A stretch of 64,000 nt of DNA from positions 51,021 to 115,020 of the forward strand of contig CAJTLY010000004.1 in the NCBI GenBank assembly GCA_910577095.1, given 5' to 3'. The notes under the pieces were generated by a model that was not told where the DNA came from, did no database searches, and saw only the letters and a program-made list of their open reading frames with translations. Shown piece after piece: positions 15,191 to 28,988 of this stretch. The position numbers were made by a program, and so were the translations under genes. The first letter of the stretch is position 1. Every line of letters starts with the position of its first letter. The stretch comes from an uncultured Alphaproteobacteria bacterium (lineage in GTDB: Bacteria > Pseudomonadota > Alphaproteobacteria > RF32 > CAG-239).

Positions 15191-15219
15191 TTGACTAATT
15201 AAAAAAATCCGGTTATTAA
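15191..15219 (+). promoter_or_regulatory. candidate sigma70 promoter for tRNA-Leu (-35 TTGACT, 17-bp spacer, -10 TATTAA)
   Basis: Hexamers sit about 10 nt upstream of the mature tRNA 5' end. Confidence 0.4.
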
Positions 15220-16220
15220 AATATCCGTTGCCCTGATGGCGGAATTGGTAGACGCGCAAGTTTCAGGTACTTGTGACCGGTTTGGTCGTGGAAGTTCGAG
15301 TCTTCTTCAGGGCACCAATCTTGACAACCTCCTAAATTTGATAGGAGGTTGAAGTTTTTTCTCATTGAAATAACTGGATTTTTCCCTTCCATAAAAAAGT
15401 TCGCAAAAACAATATTTAAAATTCGTCTTTTTTCTTCAATTTGCGAACTTTTGAAAATCTCATAAGAATTTTGACTAAAATTCAATACCTTATCAATAGC
15501 TCTCTCCACAGAAGTATCAGGAGCTTGCAATGATTGAATTTTATTTTGTAAGTCAATCTTTTGCATTTCATATTCAGCATTTTTACTACGATATACTTCA
15601 GCAGATATAGTTTCTGCAATTAACAAGTCTAAAAGTTTCTTCTGTTTTTGTTCAACATCAGACAATTCATTTTTGCTTTTTTCTAATTGATAACTTGTTC
15701 TTCCGTGAGTTATCTCATATTGTTTTTTCAAACGAGTTGCTAAGCTAGCCTTTAAATCATCATCAAAACTAATGGATAAAAGAGATTTATGAACTTCGTT
15801 CAAGATAATTTGCTCACTAACATTGGTGCAATGCTCACAATCTTTCAGTTCTGTATGTCTTAAATAAACATACTTACCTTTTTTAGTGTATGGAGAAAGT
15901 AAGCAACCACAATATTTGCAACGGACTAATCCTCTAAAAATATAGGGTTCTTTAGTATGTTTTGAAGTTCTTTTGAATTTTCCTGTTCTTATTTCTGTGC
16001 ATTTGTCAAAAAGCTCTTTAGAAATAAGCTTCTCATAGATATGAGGAAAAAAAGTTTTATTGTAAAACATCACACCATAATAGAATGGATTTTGCAAAAC
16101 ACTTGCAAATTGTGATTTTGTCATTGGGTTTCCACTCTTACGATTTTTTAATCCCCATTGCTTAGATTTTTTAACCAATTCATCCATTGAGAATAGCCCA
16201 GTTGAGTATTCCTCAAACAA
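15216..16220 (-). CDS. large serine recombinase, C-terminal part (recombinase domain, zinc ribbon, coiled coil); frameshifted relative to the N-terminal ORF
   Basis: Zinc ribbon RCKYCGCLL...DCEHC followed by a coiled-coil segment. The ORF runs antisense through the tRNA-Leu gene, so the true C-terminus is uncertain. Confidence 0.6.
   Translation of the reverse strand: MFEEYSTGLFSMDELVKKSKQWGLKNRKSGNPMTKSQFASVLQNPFYYGVMFYNKTFFPHIYEKLISKELFDKCTEIRTGKFKRTSKHTKEPYIFRGLVRCKYCGCLLSPYTKKGKYVYLRHTELKDCEHCTNVSEQIILNEVHKSLLSISFDDDLKASLATRLKKQYEITHGRTSYQLEKSKNELSDVEQKQKKLLDLLIAETISAEVYRSKNAEYEMQKIDLQNKIQSLQAPDTSVERAIDKVLNFSQNSYEIFKSSQIEEKRRILNIVFANFFMEGKNPVISMRKNFNLLSNLGGCQDWCPEEDSNFHDQTGHKYLKLARLPIPPSGQRIF
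15230..15317 (+). tRNA. tRNA-Leu (anticodon CAG), class II with long variable arm
   Basis: Acceptor stem GCCCTGA/TCAGGGC, discriminator A, CCA end. Anticodon stem CAAGT/ACTTG with loop TTCAGGT (anticodon CAG). Long variable arm and a GTTCGAGTC T-loop region. Confidence 0.85.
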
Positions 16221-16780
16221 TTTTTTATTATAGGTCCTCTTTCAGGGTCAATAATAATTGTTTTCTTTCCCTTTTCATCTCTCACATTTAAATAACCAAT
16301 AGGTGCAGGACCGGGAAGTAAACCTTCTTTAAGCATTCTTTCCTCAGACCTTCTTACATTATCTCTGGTTGAATTAACAAACATATTTGCAGATAAAATT
16401 TGCATTTGCCACATTGCCAAATCAGAACTCTTAAAGTTCTTATCAATCACAAGTCCTTCCTTAAAGAAATGAAGAGCAAGTTTTCCTTTCTTCACAAGTT
16501 CTAAAAGCATTGGGAATTCATTAAAAGTTCTTTGTAATCTGTCAACAGTATCAACTACAAGAGCAGTTAATTTAGTCTGATGCTTGATGTAATTCACTGC
16601 TTCATAAAATTTAGTCCTTTTTCCGTGGAAAGAACTTTCCACAAAAGTAAATTCTTTTGCTATTTCCAGACCTTTTATTGAGCAATAGTTGCGTAACCTA
16701 TCTAGTTGAGCATCTAAAGAGAATCCATCCTCTTGCATTTCGGTGGATACACGAGCTAGAACAACAGCTTTCATATCCAT
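16148..16780 (-). CDS. large serine recombinase, N-terminal resolvase-type catalytic domain; frameshifted, joins ORF 15216..16220 at an A6/T6 homopolymer (16221-16226)
   Basis: MDMKAVVLARVSTEMQEDGFSLDAQ... contains the catalytic Ser motif. The two ORFs overlap 16148-16220 in different frames. Confidence 0.6.
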   Translation of the reverse strand: MDMKAVVLARVSTEMQEDGFSLDAQLDRLRNYCSIKGLEIAKEFTFVESSFHGKRTKFYEAVNYIKHQTKLTALVVDTVDRLQRTFNEFPMLLELVKKGKLALHFFKEGLVIDKNFKSSDLAMWQMQILSANMFVNSTRDNVRRSEERMLKEGLLPGPAPIGYLNVRDEKGKKTIIIDPERGPIIKNCLRNTQLGYSQWMNWLKNLSNGD

Positions 16781-18007: not shown

Positions 18008-18634
18008 ATGAATGAGGGTAAAGATTATACAAGAAGAATTATAGATAATGCAGTAAGGGAAGATAGAAAAGATATCGGATATTTAGAAGATGAATTAGAA
18101 TTAATTGATATAGATGATTTATCATATTTTTATGAAGATAGGAAAAATAACATATTCAATATTTTTTTGACAAGTAAGTCATATCATTTACTTCTTCAAA
18201 TGTTAGATAGAGCCCTAATAAATCAAAATTTGAAAAATGGATATTCCTTAGCATCTGCGGTTGTTTGTAATTCAAATCTTCAACAATTTCAAAAAATCAT
18301 TGTATTAAGGAAAATGCTAAATTTAGGTTTTAATATAAATTGGAGAGATAAAAATAAAGAAACAATTTTATATCAAAGTATTAGACGAAACCTAAAAGAA
18401 ATTTCTATTTTTCTTTTAGAAAATCAAGCAAACCCCAATATTGGTAATGAGTTTAATGTTACACCTTTAATGATTGCTGGGTATAATGATATGATATACC
18501 TATCCTCATTACTAATTTATTATGGTGCTGATATAAATGCTAAAACAAAAATCAATAATTTGAGTATTAAAGATATCATAAGAGAATCAATAGGATTCAA
18601 TGTAGAAAATTTAATGACTGAATTTAATGATTAG
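18008..18634 (+). CDS. ankyrin-repeat protein
   Basis: Tandem ANK-like repeats: ...ETILYQSIRRNLKEISIFLLENQANPNIGNEFNVTPLMIAGYNDMIYLSSLLIYYGADINAKTK... Confidence 0.6.
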   Translation: MNEGKDYTRRIIDNAVREDRKDIGYLEDELELIDIDDLSYFYEDRKNNIFNIFLTSKSYHLLLQMLDRALINQNLKNGYSLASAVVCNSNLQQFQKIIVLRKMLNLGFNINWRDKNKETILYQSIRRNLKEISIFLLENQANPNIGNEFNVTPLMIAGYNDMIYLSSLLIYYGADINAKTKINNLSIKDIIRESIGFNVENLMTEFND

Positions 18635-19042: not shown

Positions 19043-22000
19043 TTACTTAAAAACCTTATCTAAATCTTTTTCCAGAGTTCCTTTTTGAACAGAAGGTAAA
19101 GTGTCAAATAATCTTAAATTATGTTTATCAATACTCATTTTCTCATCAAAACCTAAAATATAAGCAGTTGCAATACGATAGATAATTTCTGTTGGAGCTA
19201 AACCATAAACTTGATTTGCAAAAATATGTTCTAATCTTTCTTGTTCATTTGGATATTTTTGTTTCAAATTACTGCTATTAAATAGTCTTTTTACAATTTC
19301 TGTAATGTAGAGACCTGATTTCATATATAAATCAATAAAAGTTCTATCTGAATTTTCAAAACATTCAGGACATTCTTTTTCTAAATTATCAACCATTTCT
19401 TTTACAACTTTTTTAGGAGTATAGATTTGGTTTGTTTTTTGCGGTGGAATATAATCAAATATATCTTCTATCTGTTCTTCATCAAAATAATTACTTAATT
19501 TAGTTCTTAAATTTAGAAATTCTTTTACAGAATCATTAAAGACTACTGGGTCAAATAAATTTCCAGCATAATGTTTTGTTTCACCTGTTTTATCATCTAC
19601 ATAATCCCCACCATCTCTTAAAAATCTAAATTCATCAAGAGTTATGCTGGTAACTTCCTTAAATACTTCATTTGGAATAATTGTATCAAAATTCTCTAAT
19701 GTTGTATTTTCGTCTCCATAAGCCATTAAAAATGAGGGGATTGTTCTTGAAAAACCTCTTAAATGGTCTCGAACACCTTCTTCAATACTTTTCTTTTCTC
19801 TTTGTTTAATGTCTGTTTCTGTTATTTCTACAATTGTCTTACCAGCTTCGTGAACGACTTGATTAATTGAATTCTTTAATGTTTCAGCTAGATTATTTTC
19901 AACAATAGATTTGGTTGCATCAAATTTTTGGTTAATAGCAGCTATTTCTTTTTCATTTTTTGCTTGCTTGATTTCTACATTTCTGTCTCGTTCAAGTCTT
20001 TCAATATCAATTTTATAAGAACCAAATTGTTTTTCAAAAGTTCTTTCGGCATCAGCATTTAATGTTTGAATCAGTTTCTTTTGAGCAGATTTGCTTAAAT
20101 CTTTTCCATATTCTTTTTTCGCAATTTCAATCATTGCCGAAGTTCCTATATGAAATTTTTCTTTCAAATCTTCTTTGATTTCATCAACTTCTTTTTTACT
20201 TTGAATTTCATCTTTTATTGTTTCAACTGTTTTAACTAGTTCATCTTCAATATTATTATATAATTTTTCTCCAAATATATCTGTAGCTTTACCAATAACC
20301 ATTTCCGATGGCAATTCAATTTCTCCCTCAGTATTAATATTGAGTTTATCTTTTGTTTCGGATGTAACTCCGATAGGCTCTTTTTGCGGGGTGAAATTTT
20401 GTATTATATCAATAACTTCTTTTGGAGCATTAAAGATATTACTGATATTTTGGAATAAAAAATTGCACATAAAGCCCTTACGAACAACTTCTTTTGCATA
20501 AATTTTACGAGGGATGGCAAGAACTTTTTCTGCATCAAGAGTTATCATTTCTCCTTCGTCATCTTCACCATACACGGGGAAGAAGTTAATTAACTCTCTG
20601 ATGTTTTGCTTACGGTCGTCTATACTTCCTTTACCAGCAGAAGTTGTAGTGTTTAAATCATTAGCAAATTGTTCAAAAACAACTAATGTTCGAGCAGGGT
20701 CAAAATCAAATACATAAGCATTTTCTTTACGAAATTGCTGTTGTCCATATTTAAATAAACAAGGATTCTGAGCTCTAAAAGCAGCTTGCATATATAGAGC
20801 AGGACTTTTTACATTGCTTAGCATTAATACAGCAGTCCATTCCGGCACAGTAACTCCTGTTGTTAATTGTCCAACAGAAATTGTAATTGTCTTGTCATTT
20901 TCTTTGATTGCCTTTACAACTTTATCAAAGGACTTTTGATTTTCTGTATCCTCATCTAAATTACCATCACCAGCAACTAGGACTATTTCATATTCCCTAA
21001 ATATTGGATGTTCTTTCAATTTCTTTGCTAATGCTTTGGCACTATCAACACGATTTAACAGCCAAAAAGTATGTCGTAATTCATTTCTAAGTTCTTCTGT
21101 TGAAAATGGAAATTTTGTTTGAGTGGTTAATGCTTCTAAAAATTTATCTACATCAGCATCATATTTGAATGAGCCATTTGAATTAGTGATGAAGAACTCA
21201 TTTAAATCAAATGCATAGCTTTCTGTTTCTCCATCATCATCAAAATCAGCACCTTTTTGTAGCTTATCTCTAATGATTTCAGACATTTGATAAGTATAAA
21301 GATTTAATTGAGGTAGAGTAGAATAAGGATTTTCTTCTTCTTTTGTTTCGTCCCATTCTTTTTTTGCCTTTTGTTCATCAGCATATGTCCAGTTGTATAC
21401 AGCTTTTTCTTCAAATTTTGAATTAGCCAAAGCTCTAAAAGGAGTTCCTGATAAATGAAGAGTATATTTCCTTTTTATATTATCAAAAGCAACATCAGCC
21501 CTATATGTATCAATACCTTCGTGAGACTCATCAATAATCAACAAATCCCATTTTAATTGGGCAATATGCTTTAATTTGTCATATTTTCCACCAAAATCTA
21601 TTGCACCTTTAAGGTCTTGTAATGATATAAATTCTATATATTTTCTTGCTGAGGGTGGTAAATTTTCTCTTTTTACAACACAAGGTTTGTTTTTTAGTGT
21701 ATCAACCTGACTAACAAAAAAGTAACCAGATTGAGTTCCAAAAAATTTTTCATAATCACTATACCACGAGGTTGCAATAGCTGGACGATGTGTAACTATT
21801 AGAACTGTTTTAGCATCTAATTGTTTACATAAATCATATGCTGAAAGAGTTTTACCAAATCGAGGTTTTGCATTCCATAAAAACTCAGGCTCATCATCTG
21901 CATATTGTTGAAAATATGATTTTGCTTGCTGCACAGCTTTTTGCTGTTCTGTTCTTAATTTATATTCTATTACGACATCTGTTTGAGCAATTCCTCTATT

Positions 22001-22336
22001 TGCCCTAAATTCATCGAATCGTTGCTTGGATGTTTGAGGTAGGATATGAAACCATTCTGTTCCTATTTTTCTCTCAATTCCAATTTTTTTCAAATAACAA
22101 TGAAAATCAGTATCGTGAAAAATATCTCCTGAACCATCATCATATATAGCATTGGCTTTCCACTCTATTTTATACTCTATATCAGCAGTTTGGGTTTGTT
22201 GCCTAACACGAGTTTCAACATCTTGTTCTGTAAAGCCTATCTTAGTCCAACCATTATGAGTAGCAATTTGAGGAGTAGTGTAGGCATAACACATAGGTAT
22301 TACTTTTTTGCTTGTCTTGATGTTGATTTTAGCCAT
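19043..22336 (-). CDS. GIY-YIG-like (T5orf172/MUG113) nuclease domain fused to an SF2 helicase; putative restriction/defence enzyme (Type III Res-like role)
   Basis: N-terminal GWTKIGFTEQDVETRVRQQ (T5orf172-type GIY-YIG core). Walker A NAKPRFGKT, DExH box LLIIDESHEG, motif III LSGTPF. Long C-terminal region of about 500 aa. Immediately downstream of the MTase ORFs on the same strand. Confidence 0.6.
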   Translation of the reverse strand: MAKINIKTSKKVIPMCYAYTTPQIATHNGWTKIGFTEQDVETRVRQQTQTADIEYKIEWKANAIYDDGSGDIFHDTDFHCYLKKIGIERKIGTEWFHILPQTSKQRFDEFRANRGIAQTDVVIEYKLRTEQQKAVQQAKSYFQQYADDEPEFLWNAKPRFGKTLSAYDLCKQLDAKTVLIVTHRPAIATSWYSDYEKFFGTQSGYFFVSQVDTLKNKPCVVKRENLPPSARKYIEFISLQDLKGAIDFGGKYDKLKHIAQLKWDLLIIDESHEGIDTYRADVAFDNIKRKYTLHLSGTPFRALANSKFEEKAVYNWTYADEQKAKKEWDETKEEENPYSTLPQLNLYTYQMSEIIRDKLQKGADFDDDGETESYAFDLNEFFITNSNGSFKYDADVDKFLEALTTQTKFPFSTEELRNELRHTFWLLNRVDSAKALAKKLKEHPIFREYEIVLVAGDGNLDEDTENQKSFDKVVKAIKENDKTITISVGQLTTGVTVPEWTAVLMLSNVKSPALYMQAAFRAQNPCLFKYGQQQFRKENAYVFDFDPARTLVVFEQFANDLNTTTSAGKGSIDDRKQNIRELINFFPVYGEDDEGEMITLDAEKVLAIPRKIYAKEVVRKGFMCNFLFQNISNIFNAPKEVIDIIQNFTPQKEPIGVTSETKDKLNINTEGEIELPSEMVIGKATDIFGEKLYNNIEDELVKTVETIKDEIQSKKEVDEIKEDLKEKFHIGTSAMIEIAKKEYGKDLSKSAQKKLIQTLNADAERTFEKQFGSYKIDIERLERDRNVEIKQAKNEKEIAAINQKFDATKSIVENNLAETLKNSINQVVHEAGKTIVEITETDIKQREKKSIEEGVRDHLRGFSRTIPSFLMAYGDENTTLENFDTIIPNEVFKEVTSITLDEFRFLRDGGDYVDDKTGETKHYAGNLFDPVVFNDSVKEFLNLRTKLSNYFDEEQIEDIFDYIPPQKTNQIYTPKKVVKEMVDNLEKECPECFENSDRTFIDLYMKSGLYITEIVKRLFNSSNLKQKYPNEQERLEHIFANQVYGLAPTEIIYRIATAYILGFDEKMSIDKHNLRLFDTLPSVQKGTLEKDLDKVFK

Positions 22337-22341
22337 AGTTC

Positions 22342-23328
22342 TTACTCCATAGGTTTAATCATAGTTTCAATGAAATCTATTTCTTCTTGGGTCAAACCAT
22401 ATTTCTTGTAAAGTTTCTCGTCAGTCCAAGATTCGTTAAAGTTTAGCCAAGGAACAAATTGGAAATTATTTATCGAAATATTCATCCCTGATAATGTTTG
22501 TAAAATCAAAAATCTAACAAATTTTGTCCTCAAATAATGATATATATTTTCTGTTTGTTCTTTATTTGTTGTTGGGCATATAATTAAATAGGATTGGTTA
22601 CAAATTTGATTAGGTTTTAATATTTCCATTCGACTTAAAACACGATACATTCCATTTTTATCAGGATTTCCAGCGTGCTCACAAGATAATTTTGAAATCA
22701 TAGTTTTATATAGGTCAATATTGTTTTTACCTTTTTCTACTTTGTTCCTTTCAACAAAGCCCCAACCTTTACTACTTACTATTTCACAGTCATCACCATT
22801 GGTTTTTTGGTCTGTTCCCTTAAAAGTTGATAAAAAACCAAAAGGAGTTTGGGGGCTACATCCTCCATCGTTTGATAGAAAGTTATTAGTAGAATTGGTA
22901 ACTTTATTAATTATAGAAATAGCCTCATTTCTTCGGATAAAGATTTTATGTTCATTTAATTTTCTTGAATATAATTTTCTTCCATTTTTATTTACACTAG
23001 TAAATTTGCATAATCCTTTATAAGCCTTATTCCAAAGGAAATAACAAATTCCTCCATTGATATCTACATTAGGAAAGCAATAATTCGAATCTATAAAATC
23101 TACAATTGTTTGAATTCTATCATCATTTAACATTTTTTCTCTAAAATCATCTAAGCCAACACCTCCTGAAAACCATCTGGCCGGAATAATCATTGTTAAT
23201 GCTGAAGGATTAGATTTTAAAGCTTCATCTACAAATTTTTGATAAAGGGGAATTGCTCCTAGACCTTTTCCAGCTTCATTAACTTGCATTTGATATGGAG
23301 GATTTCCTACAATATAATCAAATTTCAT
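22342..23328 (-). CDS. N6-adenine DNA methyltransferase, catalytic motif IV (NPPY) part
   Basis: Begins MKFDYIVGNPPYQ... Its ATG overlaps the stop of the upstream ORF (ATGA). Confidence 0.6.
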   Translation of the reverse strand: MKFDYIVGNPPYQMQVNEAGKGLGAIPLYQKFVDEALKSNPSALTMIIPARWFSGGVGLDDFREKMLNDDRIQTIVDFIDSNYCFPNVDINGGICYFLWNKAYKGLCKFTSVNKNGRKLYSRKLNEHKIFIRRNEAISIINKVTNSTNNFLSNDGGCSPQTPFGFLSTFKGTDQKTNGDDCEIVSSKGWGFVERNKVEKGKNNIDLYKTMISKLSCEHAGNPDKNGMYRVLSRMEILKPNQICNQSYLIICPTTNKEQTENIYHYLRTKFVRFLILQTLSGMNISINNFQFVPWLNFNESWTDEKLYKKYGLTQEEIDFIETMIKPME

Positions 23329-24407
23329 TTTTTATTTCCTTTCAAAAGGTAAAATTCAACAGCACCACTTTTATCTCGCCAATTTTTTATTTTGCAAAAC
23401 ATTGGAGGGTTGCTTTTCGGTAAATTGTTAAAAAGCTCTAATTGTCTGTCATCTTCATTGGAATCGCTAAAAGGAGCTGTATCTGTAAGCCCATCCATCT
23501 GCCAAATGTTCCACGCAATTACATTGGCTATTTGTTTGATTTGTGTTAGTGTTGGTTGTCTTTTGTGTTTGAATTTAAAGTTATCAATAAATGTCCAAAG
23601 AAGATTTTCTCTTGCTAAAAGCAAGTTATCTCCTTGGTATTCATAGCCATAAGTGGCTTCATATGCTCGTTTTGCCCAATTAAACCAATCTGTTTCATTT
23701 GTTGTATTTTCATTAACTATGCGAAGTTTTCTATCTAAAAGACCAATTCTTTTCTCTATTGGCAAAAACTCTCCGGTAGTTGTGTCATATCTGGAAACAA
23801 GATAAGGTGCTTCACCACAGGTTATTTCTAATCTTTTTGAATCAACATATTTCATCCAACCTTCTTTTTTGCTTTTCTTATCTTCTGCAAATTGTATAGG
23901 TTCTGTTGTTGGTATCCAATCGTGACCATTTGGGGTATTAAATACATTGGAATAACCAAACCATTCTTCATCACAATGGTTGTTCATTTCATTACAAATC
24001 CAAGAAGGAGTAAAAACCTCAGCCGATTTACGAGTTCTGTTTATTTGTTCATCTTTGGTTTTTGATATTCTTGGTTGGATTATTCTAGTGTTATCTTTGG
24101 TAATAAGTTCCGGAAGTATTTCTTTTTCAGCAGTATAGGCTTCTCCATATTTGGCATATTCATCACAAGCAAAACGAATGTATTTTCCGGTTGTCTTATC
24201 TTGAAGCAAGATTTTTAATAAAAAAGGACTAAGTTCTTCAATATCTTGCTCTAATATATCAATGTCTTCATCTTTTGATGCTGTAACATCATCTTTATAA
24301 TCTTCTAAATTGTAAATTTGAGCATATGAATCCCATCCCCTTACTTGTTTGCTTAAGGGTGTTTCTTTTTCTAATAGTGATATATTATTACTGACACATT
24401 CTAACAC
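23325..24407 (-). CDS. N-terminal partner/segment of the DNA methyltransferase (motif X-like VFTPSWI; degenerate motif I-like LEITCGEAPYL)
   Basis: 360-aa ORF ending ...GNKK* in an A6 tract directly before the next ORF's ATG. Combined length with the next ORF is about 689 aa, typical for Type III Mod proteins. Confidence 0.45.
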   Translation of the reverse strand: MLECVSNNISLLEKETPLSKQVRGWDSYAQIYNLEDYKDDVTASKDEDIDILEQDIEELSPFLLKILLQDKTTGKYIRFACDEYAKYGEAYTAEKEILPELITKDNTRIIQPRISKTKDEQINRTRKSAEVFTPSWICNEMNNHCDEEWFGYSNVFNTPNGHDWIPTTEPIQFAEDKKSKKEGWMKYVDSKRLEITCGEAPYLVSRYDTTTGEFLPIEKRIGLLDRKLRIVNENTTNETDWFNWAKRAYEATYGYEYQGDNLLLARENLLWTFIDNFKFKHKRQPTLTQIKQIANVIAWNIWQMDGLTDTAPFSDSNEDDRQLELFNNLPKSNPPMFCKIKNWRDKSGAVEFYLLKGNKK

Positions 24408-24422
24408 TGGGCTAATTCACCA

Positions 24423-24600
24423 ATTAACCCACCCTATTTTAGGGAATACTCATTTAAAATATTAATTTTGTGGGAATATGCTTATTTTCAAAGCATAAGA
24501 TAAGATTCTAATTGATTATTTTAGATTAATTTGTATGATATCAGAAGCGAGATAATTAATTGGTGAATTAATTATCTCGCTTATTTTTTTATGTATTTTT
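24423..24600. promoter_or_regulatory. inverted-repeat region between the MTase operon and the invertase gene: 15-bp IR (taattcaccaattaa ... ttaattggtgaatta) plus a perfect 15-bp-arm hairpin and a T-run
   Basis: IR copies at 24423-24437 and 24566-24580. Hairpin gcgagataattaatt-ggtg-aattaattatctcgc at 24557-24590, followed by ttattttttt. Confidence 0.45.
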
Positions 24601-24628
24601 GTTCAATCTGATAAATATTTAAAAAGGA

Positions 24629-25231
24629 TTGAATATGATATATGGATATATAAGGGTTAGCACACAAACTCAGGTCTTAGAGAACCAAAGATTAGCAATT
24701 TCAACATATTGTGAAGCAAATAATATAGAAATTAATAAGTGGGTAGAAGAAAAAATATCTTCAAGAAAACCTCTAAAAGAAAGAAAACTAGGCAAATTAC
24801 TCAAAAAGCTCAAAAAAGGAGATATCTTAATTGCATCAGAACTAAGTAGGCTTGGGCGTAATTTGTTAGAAGTTATGGGTATTTTGAAGGAATGTTTAGA
24901 AAGAGAGTGCCAAATATGGACATTAAAAGAGAACTATCGTCTTGGTTCTGATATCCAAAGCAAAGTTCTTGCTTTTGCTTTTAGTTTGGCTGCAGAAATA
25001 GAAAGACAACTTATTTCTGAAAGGACAAAAGAAGCTCTAAAAAGAGTTAAGGCAGAAGGAAAGCACCTAGGTCGTCCTTTCGGTCGTAAAAGTGCTTTCA
25101 ATGATTTAAAGAAAAATAAAGAGCGAATTCTACAATTGGCAGAACAAAATATTCCTAAAACACAAATAGCCAGAATGTTTAAGGTTGATAGAAGCACTAT
25201 TAGAAGGTTTATAAACCAACATAAAGATTAG
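24629..25231 (+). CDS. small serine recombinase (DNA invertase/resolvase family) with C-terminal HTH
   Basis: MNMIYGYIRVSTQTQVLENQ... (catalytic Ser), ...GKHLGRPFG..., C-terminal HTH ...KTQIARMFKVDRSTIRRF... Confidence 0.75.
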   Translation: MNMIYGYIRVSTQTQVLENQRLAISTYCEANNIEINKWVEEKISSRKPLKERKLGKLLKKLKKGDILIASELSRLGRNLLEVMGILKECLERECQIWTLKENYRLGSDIQSKVLAFAFSLAAEIERQLISERTKEALKRVKAEGKHLGRPFGRKSAFNDLKKNKERILQLAEQNIPKTQIARMFKVDRSTIRRFINQHKD

Positions 25232-25247
25232 AGAAATAGTGCATTAA

Positions 25248-25808
25248 CTATCTTTTTTTCAAATAACTGTAAACTGTAGGTCTAGTGATTTTAAATTGTT
25301 TTGCAATCCGAGAAATAGGCATTCCTTGACTATGCATATTATTTAATTCAGTAATTTGCTCACTACTTAGTTTGTTTTTTCCACCTTTGTATTTCCCTTT
25401 AGCTTTTGCTATTGCAATACCCTCTCTTTGTCTTTCTAATAGAATAGCCCTTTCAAGCTCTGCAACAGCTCCTAACATAACCATCATCATTTTTTGATAG
25501 GGGTCTTGTTTTTCATTTTCCTTAAAAGTCAGGTTTTCTTTATGAAAAATAATAGTAGCTCCTTTTGAGGTTATTTTTTCTACAAGATTCAATAAATCAC
25601 GAGTGTTACGAGCCAAGCGACTCATCTCGTGTATGTTAATGATATCGTTTGCCCTAATATTTGCCAACATTGCTTGTAACTGAGGACGATTGGTATCTTT
25701 ACCACTAATTTTTTCTTCATACACTCTGTCACAAGCAACATCTTTTAGTTGTCGTTCTGTGTTTTGCTCAATTGAAGAGACTCGTATATAATTAAATATC
25801 ATTGCCAT
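25248..25808 (-). CDS. small serine recombinase (resolvase/invertase family)
   Basis: MAMIFNYIRVSSIEQNTERQ..., ...GKYKGGK..., HTH ...ISRIAKQFKITRPTVYSYL... Convergent with the previous recombinase, 16-bp gap. Confidence 0.75.
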   Translation of the reverse strand: MAMIFNYIRVSSIEQNTERQLKDVACDRVYEEKISGKDTNRPQLQAMLANIRANDIINIHEMSRLARNTRDLLNLVEKITSKGATIIFHKENLTFKENEKQDPYQKMMMVMLGAVAELERAILLERQREGIAIAKAKGKYKGGKNKLSSEQITELNNMHSQGMPISRIAKQFKITRPTVYSYLKKR

Positions 25809-25814
25809 ACCTCT

Positions 25815-25906
25815 TAATGTAAAATCTATATTTAAGAATATATTTTACAATTGTAAAATCGTCAAGTAAAATAATTTAGATTTTACACTTTTGTAAATGT
25901 AAAAAC
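25815..25906. promoter_or_regulatory. res-like site: cluster of TGTAAAAT-type half-sites including a perfect 18-bp palindrome attttacaattgtaaaat upstream of the resolvase gene
   Basis: Copies at 25819-25827, 25842-25859 (palindrome), 25877-25887 (inverted) and 25893-25906. Three-subsite organisation over about 90 bp. Confidence 0.4.
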
Positions 25907-26024
25907 AGGGTATGCTTGGGTTTGTCAATTTAAATGAAGAGTTATAAGGGAATAAATTAATTCTATAGACTCTTTGGTATATTATAATATAATTGTTCCA
26001 TCAAAATATTGTATGAGGTATTTT

Positions 26025-28328
26025 ATGGTTGCAATTAAATCAATTAAAGAAATTAAAAATTTTGCATCTTTTGAAAATTTCGATGCCTCCATATCTCCAT
26101 ATAAAAATTTTCAAAAGTATAATATATTTTATGGATTAAATGGCAGTGGAAAAACAACTTTATCAAGATTATTATCATTTTTAAATGTAGGGAAAATACC
26201 TGATGATGAAGAAAGCAAAGAACAGTATCAAGATTTTAATCAATTGAAATTTAAAATAGAACTTGATAATGATGATATTGTTACGGTCTTCGATAATAAC
26301 CAACTAATAAATAAAATAAGAGTTTTTAATTCTGATTTTGTTAGTAGAAATGTAAAATTAGAAAAAGCAACAACTAAATCACTAATCTATAATATTAGCG
26401 AAAAATCAGATAAATTAAAAACAAAAAGAAAATATTATGAAAAAAATATATCTTATTGGCATAACAAAGATAACCAGTTAATTATAGATAAAAATATAGA
26501 AGAAAAAGATAAGATTCTTCAAAATAAATACCAAGATTTAGCAAGGGAAATAAAATACCTATTAAATTTATCAAATAGTTTTAACAAAAATTCTGTTAAA
26601 GACTTATTTAATCAACTTACTCAATGCAAAGAATTATCTGATGAAGAATTTCAAAAATTTGTTGCTATTTCTAAACAAGATGAAAAATATCTACTCGATA
26701 TTAATTTTGATAATTTAAGTGTTAATAGTCTGAAAAAAGATGAATTTGATGAATTGAAGAAAATTTTATTAACAAAAAAGACCAGAAATACAGGAGAAAA
26801 AGAAACTGTAATTAATTGGATATCAGATGGGTTGAAAATACATCAAAATGACCACACCAAATGCAAGTTCTGTTCTCAAGAGATACATCACGATTTTTGG
26901 AAAACTAGATTAAGTGAGATAGAACAGATTTTAAAAAAAGATATTGAATTTGAAACATTTGAACAAAATATAAGACAAATTATAAATAGACTAGACAATA
27001 AAATAAGATTTATAGATACATTTGATGTTAATATTACTAGCAATCAATTTTTGATACAATATCAAAAACAAGCTGAGTTGATTCTCTGCAAAATTAAAGA
27101 ATTGAAATCCCAAAGCAGACAATCACTTGAAATTATAAAATCATTATTTGAGAAAAAGTTATTTCAATTAGATGAGGCTATCGTTTTAGAAGATAGTGTT
27201 TTTGATTTGTCATATTTTTCAGAATGTAAAAAATTAAATCTTCTTATTCAGAGTAATAATATAGAATGTAATGAATTGAGTAAAATTAAAGAAGATGCTA
27301 AAAATAAAATTATTTCTTCTATATTATTTCCTCATATGGGAGAAGTGGCTAGAATAAAAAGCTATTTGGCAAAAGCTAATACAACAAAAGTTATGATTGC
27401 AGATAGAATTAGTAATTATCAAATAAAATTAGCTACTATTATAAAAGAATTAAATAATCAAAAAGTTGCTATAAATGAGATTGAAAACATTTGCGAACAA
27501 ATTTTTGGATATAAGAAATTTTCTTTTACTTTTGATGAGAATCTTAAATCGTATAAAATTACTAGAACTGGTAAAACATCTGCAAGAAACATCAGTGAAG
27601 GAGAACAAACAGTAATAGCATTTGCATATTTTATAGCTTGCTTAAAAGAAGGTAATTTTAACAGAGAAGAAGGGATTGTTGTTATAGATGACCCAGTATC
27701 AAGTTTAGACCAACAATATCTTTTTAATATTTACGTGGTGTTAATGAGAGAAGTTTTAAAGGAGAATTTGTGTTCTCAGGCATTTATTCTTACTCATAAT
27801 TTTTATTTTTTTAGAAAAGTACGAAATTGTTTAAAAAATATTTCTAAACTTAAGGATGAAACGAAAAAACAAACTTATGAAAATACATATGTTTCTGTTT
27901 ATTCTATTGAGAAAACGAATGGAAAAAGTGTTATTAAAGATGCATCAAAATATTTATTAAATTATGAAACAGAATATTTACATTTAATAAGAAAATTAAA
28001 TAAAGACCTTGTAGAAGCAGATAATGAATTTTCAGATGTGGGAGTTGGCAATGCTATTAGACAAGTGTTAGAAATATTTTTATCATTTAAATGTCCTGAT
28101 AAAAATAATCTTTTTACTAGATTTCAGAATGTAACTCCCAAACCAGATAAAAAATTTAAATATTTATATGATTTGGTAAATTCAATGAGCCATACAGATG
28201 AAATAGATACAGAAGTTGTAAACGGTGCTTATAAAAGGATTGCAGGAAAAAGTGACATCCAAGAGCTATTTGATTTTATCAAAGAAATTGATGCAGAGCA
28301 TTATGAAAAAATCAAAAAAATTGTTTAG
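26025..28328 (+). CDS. RloC-like ABC/AAA_13 ATPase with coiled-coil CxxC zinc hook; putative anticodon-nuclease-type abortive-infection protein
   Basis: Start chosen at MVAIKSIKEI with a GAGG SD 7 nt upstream. Walker A YGLNGSGKTTLSRL. CxxC HTKCKFCSQE inside a long coiled-coil insertion. Signature/D-loop VVIDDPVSSLDQQYL. About 767 aa. Confidence 0.5.
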   Translation: MVAIKSIKEIKNFASFENFDASISPYKNFQKYNIFYGLNGSGKTTLSRLLSFLNVGKIPDDEESKEQYQDFNQLKFKIELDNDDIVTVFDNNQLINKIRVFNSDFVSRNVKLEKATTKSLIYNISEKSDKLKTKRKYYEKNISYWHNKDNQLIIDKNIEEKDKILQNKYQDLAREIKYLLNLSNSFNKNSVKDLFNQLTQCKELSDEEFQKFVAISKQDEKYLLDINFDNLSVNSLKKDEFDELKKILLTKKTRNTGEKETVINWISDGLKIHQNDHTKCKFCSQEIHHDFWKTRLSEIEQILKKDIEFETFEQNIRQIINRLDNKIRFIDTFDVNITSNQFLIQYQKQAELILCKIKELKSQSRQSLEIIKSLFEKKLFQLDEAIVLEDSVFDLSYFSECKKLNLLIQSNNIECNELSKIKEDAKNKIISSILFPHMGEVARIKSYLAKANTTKVMIADRISNYQIKLATIIKELNNQKVAINEIENICEQIFGYKKFSFTFDENLKSYKITRTGKTSARNISEGEQTVIAFAYFIACLKEGNFNREEGIVVIDDPVSSLDQQYLFNIYVVLMREVLKENLCSQAFILTHNFYFFRKVRNCLKNISKLKDETKKQTYENTYVSVYSIEKTNGKSVIKDASKYLLNYETEYLHLIRKLNKDLVEADNEFSDVGVGNAIRQVLEIFLSFKCPDKNNLFTRFQNVTPKPDKKFKYLYDLVNSMSHTDEIDTEVVNGAYKRIAGKSDIQELFDFIKEIDAEHYEKIKKIV

Positions 28329-28331
28329 GTT

Positions 28332-28988
28332 TTAGTTTTTTACAAAATCTCTCATAGCTTCAATTAATTCATCAAAATTGGTAGAGGGTCTTATTCTCCA
28401 ATCTCCTAATTTGGAATTGTTTGTTCTTAATTTTTTAGCCCTTGAGATAGCTTTATCTTCATTATCATTAACCAGCATTAAATCTATATCAAACCTTTTG
28501 TTGGTTTTTGCATTATATCTAGGAAGATATATTTTTAATTCTTTTTCCAACTCATTTTTGGTGGTTGGTGTTTTATCTGAAAAATGCATCAAAGCCCACA
28601 ATTCAACAGACCTATTAGAACAAATGACTTTAATATTATTGTCTTTTGCTTCCTCAAAAGCCTTGTCAAAATTCTCTTTATCTTTCCCTCCTATGCTTCT
28701 ATCATCTTCATCAAACACAGCATAAAAAGTATCTAAATAATTTTTTGCTGGTTTCTTTGCTTCAATTAAATTTTCAACAATTTTTAAAGGTTCCGATTCA
28801 TATTTTGAAGCCACAATTTCAAATTTAGTCATAGCTTTAATATGATTTACACCATTTTTAGCAGCAAAATTTCTAATCCAATCAGTTAAATATTGTGGTT
28901 CAGTTACATCACCTTCGGTAAAAATAACCATTTTGGAAGCACTTCTTTCTTTTCTATTGTGCCTATTTTTTCTATCTAAACTAACCAT
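28332..28988 (-). CDS. RloB-like/TOPRIM-like protein (AbiLii/AriB-type partner)
   Basis: ...MVIFTEGDVTEPQYL... matches the RloB N-terminal 'vcEGekTEpnYf' motif. A DxD-type acidic motif AVFDEDD is present. Immediately downstream of the ATPase gene with a 4-nt gap. Confidence 0.65.
   Translation of the reverse strand: MVSLDRKNRHNRKERSASKMVIFTEGDVTEPQYLTDWIRNFAAKNGVNHIKAMTKFEIVASKYESEPLKIVENLIEAKKPAKNYLDTFYAVFDEDDRSIGGKDKENFDKAFEEAKDNNIKVICSNRSVELWALMHFSDKTPTTKNELEKELKIYLPRYNAKTNKRFDIDLMLVNDNEDKAISRAKKLRTNNSKLGDWRIRPSTNFDELIEAMRDFVKN

Follow-up and report, generated by a model that had tools for sequence, protein, structure and literature searches.

A 128-bp invertible segment with a candidate promoter beside an Mpi-family serine invertase: probable ON/OFF control of a Type II-like restriction-modification operon in an uncultured alphaproteobacterium of the gut

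The window analysed here is a stretch of 64,000 nucleotides from an uncultured gut alphaproteobacterium (assembly GCA_910577095.1, contig CAJTLY010000004.1, positions 51,021 to 115,020), and our subject is its intergenic region 24408-24634, which lies between a minus-strand operon encoding a methyltransferase and a helicase and a plus-strand gene encoding a small serine recombinase. Within this region, a segment at 24428-24555 inverts with exact end-points between two short inverted repeats. The arrangement of sequence elements around it suggests that the segment is probably an ON/OFF promoter inverton controlling a Type II-like restriction-modification operon, and that the window would represent the OFF orientation. 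The elements on which this proposal is built are the following:

24413-24427, no strand: left recombination site (IRL), TAATT-CACC-AATTA followed by A; perfect 15-bp inverted repeat of 24556-24570 and inversion boundary in contig L001
24428-24555, no strand: invertible segment, 128 bp between the repeats and 144 bp from core centre to core centre; exact reverse complement in L001
24556-24570, no strand: right recombination site (IRR), TTAATT-GGTG-AATTA, with the core GGTG at 24562-24565; inverted copy of IRL and inversion boundary
24408-24431, minus strand: extended left palindrome TGGGCTAATTCACCAATTAACCCA (TGGGcTAATT-CACC-AATTAaCCCA), ending at the base before the methylase start codon
24512-24539, plus strand: promoter-like element P_R, TTGATT-16 nt-TATGAT, with hexamers conserved across nine relatives
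24545-24590, plus strand: state-specific intrinsic-terminator-like hairpin, with its 5' arm on the invertible segment and its 3' arm on fixed DNA
24601-24634, plus strand: invertase leader hairpin predicted by folding, GTTCAATCT...AGGATTGAA, sequestering the Shine-Dalgarno sequence AGGA at 24625-24628
24635-25231, plus strand: Mpi-family small serine DNA invertase of 198 amino acids (aa), with a Pfam Resolvase domain, a C-terminal helix-turn-helix (HTH) and a match to NCBIfam NF009949

Comparison with public contigs revealed the inversion directly. Contig L001 (Logan, SRR31800350) is the same as the window over 12,597 bp, apart from 2 single-nucleotide polymorphisms and the exact reverse complement of 24428-24555, and two other contigs (L002 and L003) match the window at 100% identity along 12.6 kb. 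We refer to the orientation of the window as state A and to that of L001 as state B; state A was the commoner among assemblies. Many public contigs encode precisely this 198-aa invertase, and near-identical places were collapsed, which left about 21 contigs outside the orientation comparison. Contig L019 encodes a variant from the same 90%-identity cluster as the window invertase. The contig opens with 35 nt that reverse-complement its own right-outer half-site, T-run and leader, and at CACC these run into the left-inner half; the ordinary right junction of state A is present on the contig as well. An assembler yields such a contig when the reads contain both orientations. The two sites of this variant share TAA..CACC..TTA only, so the exchange occurred within the 4-bp core, and homologous recombination is excluded. 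A preliminary description of the region, made from the sequence alone, had proposed an invertible switch and suggested a search for the inverted form among strain and metagenome variants; that form was found in L001, along with the junctions of both orientations in L019.

A right-junction 25-mer had no exact match in JGI metagenomes or IMG/VR, and a left-junction 19-mer recovered one true relative (L008) and six chance matches among species-representative genomes. Several contigs break at the switch: L015 begins exactly at GGTGAATTAATT (the GGTG core), L018 starts inside or near the segment, and L107 and L108 end 11 and 25 nt past the left repeat. These breaks are suggestive of graph branching from mixed orientations, and were not used as evidence.

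The inversion boundaries coincide with TAATTCACCAATTAA at 24413-24427 and its inverted copy TTAATTGGTGAATTA at 24556-24570, which are complementary over 15 bp at 100%. The preliminary description had recognized this perfect repeat, and had placed it 10 bp too high. An exact inverted repeat of at least 15 bp arose in 2 of 2000 dinucleotide-preserving shuffles of 24408-24634, and a search with a 14-mer allowing up to 2 mismatches matched only IRL and IRR within the 64-kb window. Both sites are dyads around an asymmetric 2-bp centre, TAATT-C[AC]C-AATTA and its inverse. Serine recombinases generally make a staggered cut at a central dinucleotide, and by analogy the crossover dinucleotide would be the AC at 24419-24420 in IRL, with a staggered cut at the central AC/GT. 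The left repeat also has a palindrome of its own (24408-24431), an element absent from the preliminary description, and L011, L016 and L100 likewise have palindromic left sites located at the start codon of the cargo gene or across it. In some variants the bases beside the core are mosaic, at the right site in L103-L105 and at the left site in L100 and L107. The right site of L103 is TTAAAC-GGTG-AGTTAA, with an inner side like a left site. The left site of L100 is CTAAAC-CACC-AATTAG, and the left repeat of L107 carries a T-to-C change (TTAATCGGTG). Such changes may stem from earlier exchanges, from drift or from locked switches. We also considered the GGTG core as a Shine-Dalgarno sequence for the cargo gene; the spacing suits L035, and in the window it is too long (9 nt after GGTGA), and the idea was rejected.

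The right-hand site is embedded in a larger structure. Perfect 17-bp arms at 24545-24561 and 24566-24582 flank the GGTG loop (24562-24565) and are followed by seven T residues at 24584-24590. The earlier account of a perfect palindrome with this loop and T-run was correct, except that the arms had been taken as 15 bp and the true span is 24545-24582. No hairpin of 17 bp or more appeared in 2000 dinucleotide-preserving shuffles of 24408-24634, where the maximum was 12 bp. In a scan of 24000-26200, the hairpin and T7 were the sole terminator-like site, and there was none in L001; the predicted folding energy is -21.3 kcal/mol in state A versus -10.6 in state B. Across relatives, 5 of 17 stem pairs show compensatory two-sided changes, a level that none of 500 shuffles attained. 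These stem changes are not mirrored in the left sites, which argues for selection on the hairpin rather than on protein recognition. The T-run is retained throughout the clade of at least 90% identity. Based on these structural predictions, the stem and U7 would terminate most P_R transcripts in state A. It had also been suggested that the hairpin might be only a terminator or a res subsite. It is indeed terminator-like, but it belongs to the switch, because one arm is fixed and the other is invertible. We considered whether the hairpin RNA could regulate the cargo leader by antisense pairing, and rejected this because the shared 15-mer has the same sense in both RNAs.

The promoter-like hexamers noticed earlier between the repeats are present, again 10 bp below the positions first given: TTGATT occupies 24512-24517 and TATGAT 24534-24539, and 16 nt separate them. 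In an alignment of nine relatives that spans the right end of the segment to the invertase start, the -35 hexamer TTGATT is invariant, the -10 hexamer follows TAnnAT and the 16-nt spacing is fixed, but the sequence of the spacer varies, which is the pattern expected of a real promoter. Transcription from P_R would be expected to start where the 17-bp stem begins, at about 24545-24547. In the window, the element points to the invertase. In L001 it is found on the minus strand at a distance of 36 nt upstream from the methylase GTG, whose position at 24407 on the minus strand had been given correctly in the preliminary description. P_R is thus a putative promoter, which would give orientation-dependent expression. 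In addition, a conserved mid-segment motif, TGTCA(A/G)AAG(N)TG(G/A)CA, occurs in L011, L016, L019, L100 and L020, and is missing from the window and L008. The motif contains a TTGACA that reads towards the cargo, and may represent a second promoter or a site for an accessory protein.

Inversion is also predicted to change the leader of the operon. In the methylase mRNA, the left palindrome forms a hairpin against the GUG start codon in the window orientation only, and the leader folds at -13.3 kcal/mol (z -3.6) in state A versus -4.5 (z 0.26) in state B. On the other side of the switch, the predicted invertase leader hairpin is paired in all nine relatives, with 7 of its 9 pairs invariant and 2 changed one-sidedly. 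The invertase leader is nearly invariant from the T-run to the ATG, and an A-to-G change in L020 is kept as a G-U pair. L022 and L030 have no terminator-type palindrome; they have another hairpin of 10 bp, CTTATAATCA...TGATTATAAG, 9-10 nt upstream of the invertase ATG. Located over the invertase ribosome-binding site, this hairpin appears to be another means of keeping invertase translation low.

The recombinase gene beside the switch encodes a serine invertase, as had been noted, but it belongs to the Mpi family rather than being of Hin/Gin type: it scored 279.9 bits against the NF009949 Mpi equivalog model, compared to a cut-off of 272, with coverage of 1-197 of the 203 model positions. PF00239 matched residues 2-144 (1.2e-34) and HTH_7 matched residues 150-191. 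Residues Y5, R7, S9 and T10 of the YxRVS(T) serine motif are invariant in 28 homologues. A 95%-identical locus, in the metagenome-assembled genome (MAG) RGIG9125, carries the same Mpi-family invertase name in its NCBI annotation, and the best solved relative is the Gin invertase 4m6f (E 1e-15), a distant match whose alignment spans the protein. The open reading frame (ORF) does open with TTG at 24629, the start first assigned to it, but the conserved start is the ATG at 24635 (MIYGYIRVS); public collections hold the 198-aa form, and the 200-aa form was not found there. This start is separated from the right palindrome by 52 nt and from the 15-bp repeat by 64 nt. The invertase keeps its adjoining GGTG site in other genomic contexts, where a second serine recombinase found next to it in the window is absent. 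We infer that the 24635-25231 invertase is the enzyme acting on the CACC/GGTG sites. The second recombinase (186 aa, 25248-25808, minus strand) is convergent with the invertase and is not of the Mpi family, scoring just 70.9 bits against NF009949. Upstream of it, at 25809-25973, there are at least 5 half-site-like repeats (TGTAAAAT/ATTTTACA, 25818-25900), which look like a res-type or operator cluster.

We propose the following mechanism for the switch. The Mpi-family invertase would recombine the CACC/GGTG dyad sites and flip the 128-bp segment, which would hold one conserved sigma-70-like promoter (24512-24539). In state A, the promoter would be aimed at the invertase gene, and its transcript would begin at the 17-bp hairpin and U7 and mostly stop there; the ribosome-binding site of the invertase would also be sequestered by the leader hairpin. 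With no conserved promoter facing the operon and the left-site hairpin lying against its start codon, the operon would be OFF or low. In state B, the same promoter would sit some 30 nt ahead of the methylase GUG; the leader would be unstructured, the terminator would no longer form, and the operon would be ON. The assignment of ON to L001 and OFF to the window, like the choice of the operon as the phase-variable gene, is our interpretation of these positions.

Several observations weigh against this proposal. A complete state-B locus was found on one contig only (L001) among those compared, and state B keeps a weaker hairpin ahead of the T-run. Promoter-like matches were no more numerous than in shuffled AT-rich sequence (14 found versus 11.4 expected), and the raw match of P_R (9 of 12 positions) is no better than chance in such DNA, so that the case for P_R is one of conservation. 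A weaker promoter-like sequence, TTAATA-18-TAAAAT (24465->24436), faces the methylase in state A, and sites of the TTGACA-16-CAGAAT/CATACT type hold the same left-end position in L011, L016 and L019; the operon may therefore not be fully OFF in state A. Finally, the promoter scan revealed none evident for the invertase outside the segment, and the proposed mechanism consequently does not account for how state B flips back.

An alternative is an exchange of promoters. The segment would then carry two outward promoters, and inversion would exchange which of them drives the operon and which the invertase, while the operon would be active in either state, though to differing degrees. The effect would fall mainly on the invertase, whose expression the terminator would prevent in state A and allow in state B, thereby biasing the population to state A; fimE orientational control in Escherichia coli is an analogue for such an invertase-driven bias. 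The cargo-facing left-end sites in state A, the predominance of that state among assemblies and the failure to find an invertase promoter elsewhere all agree with this explanation. However, the left-end candidates are not conserved across cargo types, being unclear in L101 and weak in the window and L008, and they are no better than chance in AT-rich DNA. Furthermore, relatives of the P0063 type have a segment of about 50 bp with a single promoter-like site, aimed away from the same kind of methylase, and a single site in so short a segment favours a simple ON/OFF flip. We consider the exchange of promoters unlikely.

It is much harder to explain the inverted form as a one-off rearrangement or an assembly artefact, with the repeat and hairpin a mere terminator or operator in front of a recombinase gene. 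Such an explanation could point to the single complete state-B contig that was verified, and to L019, which could be a true longer inverted duplication in a contig ending 35 nt into it. However, the end-points of the inversion match the repeats exactly, and the state-B junction k-mers in the assembly require reads that contain them. Repeats of 15 bp, or of 4 bp in the L019 type, are too short for homologous recombination, and a dedicated invertase is always adjacent. In addition, an inverted CACC/GGTG pair around short promoter-bearing segments is kept down to 66% identity. We therefore regard an accidental origin as very improbable. Least credible of all is the idea that the sites are accessory or crossover sites of a resolvase involved in cointegrate resolution or excision: the enzyme does belong to the resolvase/invertase superfamily, a second serine recombinase is next door and the sites, like res in Tn3, are located between divergent genes, but they are inverted rather than direct, number two of equal geometry rather than three subsites, and yielded an inversion as the product seen, and the second recombinase has its own different repeats (TGTAAAAT/ATTTTACA) and is itself absent from most related loci.

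Returning to the ON/OFF inverton, examination of related loci revealed that the combination of invertase and switch is not confined to the window. Invertases 66-76% identical to that of the window have, next to the gene, an inverted CACC...GGTG pair that encloses a short segment of about 50 to 130 bp. A GGTG-centred site lies 50-110 nt upstream of the invertase start in all examined relatives of at least 66% identity, and throughout this clade the switch is always adjacent to the invertase gene. The cargo next to the switch is diverse: an MmeI-like Type IIG enzyme in L022, HKD-SNF2 nucleases in L023 and L035, and a glycosyltransferase operon in L030. In L189-L192 it is the same methylase-helicase pair as in the window, located downstream on the same strand. 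L191 and L192 have a 26-bp repeat around about 50 bp, with room for one promoter-like site only, and in L189 and L190 the right repeat copy is degenerate, without the GGTG core at that position. Judged by eye, the segment promoter aims away from the cargo in the assembled state of L022, L030, L035 and L191/L192 (L023 was unclear).

The adjacency is less common farther afield. An inverted repeat of any kind of at least 11 bp was present at 13 of 70 invertase loci, five of which (the window, L022, L023, L030 and L035) have the CACC/GGTG pairs of the clade with at least 66% identity. The closest annotated Mpi-family genes of plasmids and phages are at most 62% identical, and genes this distant, those of IMG/VR included, mostly lack an adjacent repeat. 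All IMG/VR relatives are at most 63% identical and fall outside the CACC-core clade. It is conceivable, and we offer this only tentatively, that the Mpi-like clade of at least 66% identity with the CACC/GGTG core consists of self-contained, horizontally mobile cassettes of invertase and switch that gate phage-defence genes, and that a flip in the subclade of the window acts through three layers of control. If so, the cargo of the cassettes would include the methylase-helicase system, Type IIG enzymes and HKD-SNF2 nucleases. In the window subclade, where both sites lie in palindromes, one inversion would move the promoter, dismantle the terminator that shields the invertase and open the hairpin at the cargo start codon, and the switching bias would be set by orientation-dependent expression of the invertase.

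The locus resides in a 30%-GC island of about 15.3-31.4 kb inside a 49%-GC genome, and the operon to the left of the switch comprises three genes:

23325..24407, minus strand: first cargo gene, N-terminal half of a Type II N6-adenine methyltransferase (PADLOC MTase_II PDLC03390, 1.9e-105)
22342..23328, minus strand: second cargo gene, Eco57I-type methyltransferase C-terminal half with an NPPY motif (Pfam Eco57I, 1.2e-20)
19043..22336, minus strand: third cargo gene, a 1097-aa ResIII-type helicase (Pfam ResIII, 5.4e-15; PADLOC REase_MTase_IIG, 7.3e-20)

The second gene also matched the PADLOC models MTase_II and REase_MTase_IIG. The helicase is the presumed restriction subunit of the operon, and travels with the methylase in L011, L016 and L189-L192. 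The methyltransferase is divided between two ORFs with a 4-nt overlap (ATGA) in the window and in L011, and is a single ORF of 683 aa in L016 (724-2775) and of 674-697 aa in L189-L192. The split form may be natural, since PADLOC has one model per half.

To the right of the invertase lie the second serine recombinase, a PDC-S06/AAA_13 gene and an AbiL pair. Similarity between L008 and the window breaks off at 25916 and resumes at 28342, the PDC-S06 gene being replaced in L008. At its edge, the island adjoins a tRNA-Leu(CAG) gene (15230-15317, plus strand), which overlaps the 3' end of a large serine recombinase split into two overlapping ORFs of 210 and 334 aa (15216-16780, minus strand). This recombinase is probably the integrase of the island, and is possibly frameshifted. 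An Rfam scan produced no match in the intergenic region, and elsewhere in the window found only the tRNA-Leu at 15230 and weak sub-threshold matches. A weak NrrF-like match hinted at the Neisseriaceae as source, which was rejected: DUS and USS uptake sequences are absent from the window, and the host belongs to a lineage of gut alphaproteobacterial MAGs. MAG RGIG9125, with its 95%-identical locus, comes from the rectum of a water deer. A 10-bp direct repeat, ATATGATATA, occurs at 18489-18498 and 24633-24642, and a public fusion protein of 344 aa (P0012, encoded on a contig of 87.5 kb) joins an ankyrin-repeat gene (18008-18634) to the invertase start at ATATGATATA. This fusion indicates that in some strains a microhomology deletion of about 6.1 kb has removed the switch together with the entire restriction-modification operon.

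The switch is a new example of an on/off device known from gut bacteria, and neatly combines known tricks. The original account of Mpi-controlled invertible promoters is reportedly that of Coyne et al. 2003. The site consensus of Mpi in Bacteroides fragilis has ACGT-type motifs. Like the Mpi system, the switch described here pairs an enzyme of the same family by the NCBIfam cut-off, encoded outside the segment, with short (about 130-200 bp) promoter segments bounded by inverted repeats in gut bacteria. Unlike in that system, the invertase is cis-linked to a single switch with two sites in 64 kb, the host is an uncultured gut alphaproteobacterium, and a restriction-modification operon takes the place of a capsule locus as the cargo. 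Its core is CACC/GGTG with AT-rich arms, and the intergenic region is without any ACGT. Published work on B. fragilis describes Mpi as a 'master' invertase that acts in trans on at least 13 dispersed regions (PMC5903667), and likewise reports the invertible promoters under its control (PMC5903667, PMC12632263).

The predicted terminator has its nearest counterpart in Clostridioides difficile cwpV, where an intrinsic terminator, a stem with poly-U, forms at the junction of repeat and segment in one orientation only (Emerson et al. 2009; PMC2784873). Most genomic DNA was in the terminator-forming orientation, the promoter lies outside the switch so that the terminator silences the cargo, and the recombinase, RecV, is a tyrosine recombinase encoded elsewhere (PMC2784873). 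Our locus similarly has a predicted terminator at a repeat junction in one orientation only, in the commoner state. However, the promoter-like element here is inside the segment, the terminator lies between it and the invertase gene, and the recombinase is an adjacent serine invertase. A recombination site that supplies one arm of a terminator has so far been documented mainly for cwpV. With Hin (Salmonella), Gin (phage Mu), Cin and Pin, the enzyme shares its small size, serine chemistry and C-terminal HTH, and the sites share a dyad structure with an asymmetric central dinucleotide. In the hin system a promoter on the flipped segment drives flanking genes, and segments of the Hin/Gin type are 1-4 kb in length, include or border the invertase gene and depend on an enhancer to which Fis binds; the segment described here is 128 bp.

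Reversible heterogeneity of restriction-modification within a clonal population is likewise familiar, and includes the hsd inversion of Mycoplasma pulmonis and mod genes whose repeat tracts vary through slipped-strand mispairing. Type I hsdS shufflons are also phase-variable restriction-modification systems (PMC7672463, PMC7641763, PMC9881135). The locus in the window would resemble hsdS shufflons and mod tracts in the heterogeneity that it produces, but shufflons rearrange the coding sequence of the specificity gene, mostly by tyrosine recombinases. Here the coding sequence stays intact, and it is the 5'-region promoter of the methylase/helicase operon that would be flipped, by a serine invertase.

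The inversion with its exact end-points and the conservation of the recombination sites, the promoter hexamers and the palindrome, together with the family of the invertase, point to a whole Type II-like restriction-modification operon under an inversion switch in an uncultured gut alphaproteobacterium, a group in which invertons have been little described. Phase-variable restriction-modification alters phage sensitivity, DNA uptake and genome methylation within a clone. The switch thus bears on phage-host dynamics, and on how the methylomes of metagenome-assembled genomes are read. The related loci suggest that the cassette has been reused in front of several defence systems, and the CACC/GGTG core together with the invertase clade could therefore serve as a marker of phase-variable defence genes in metagenomes.

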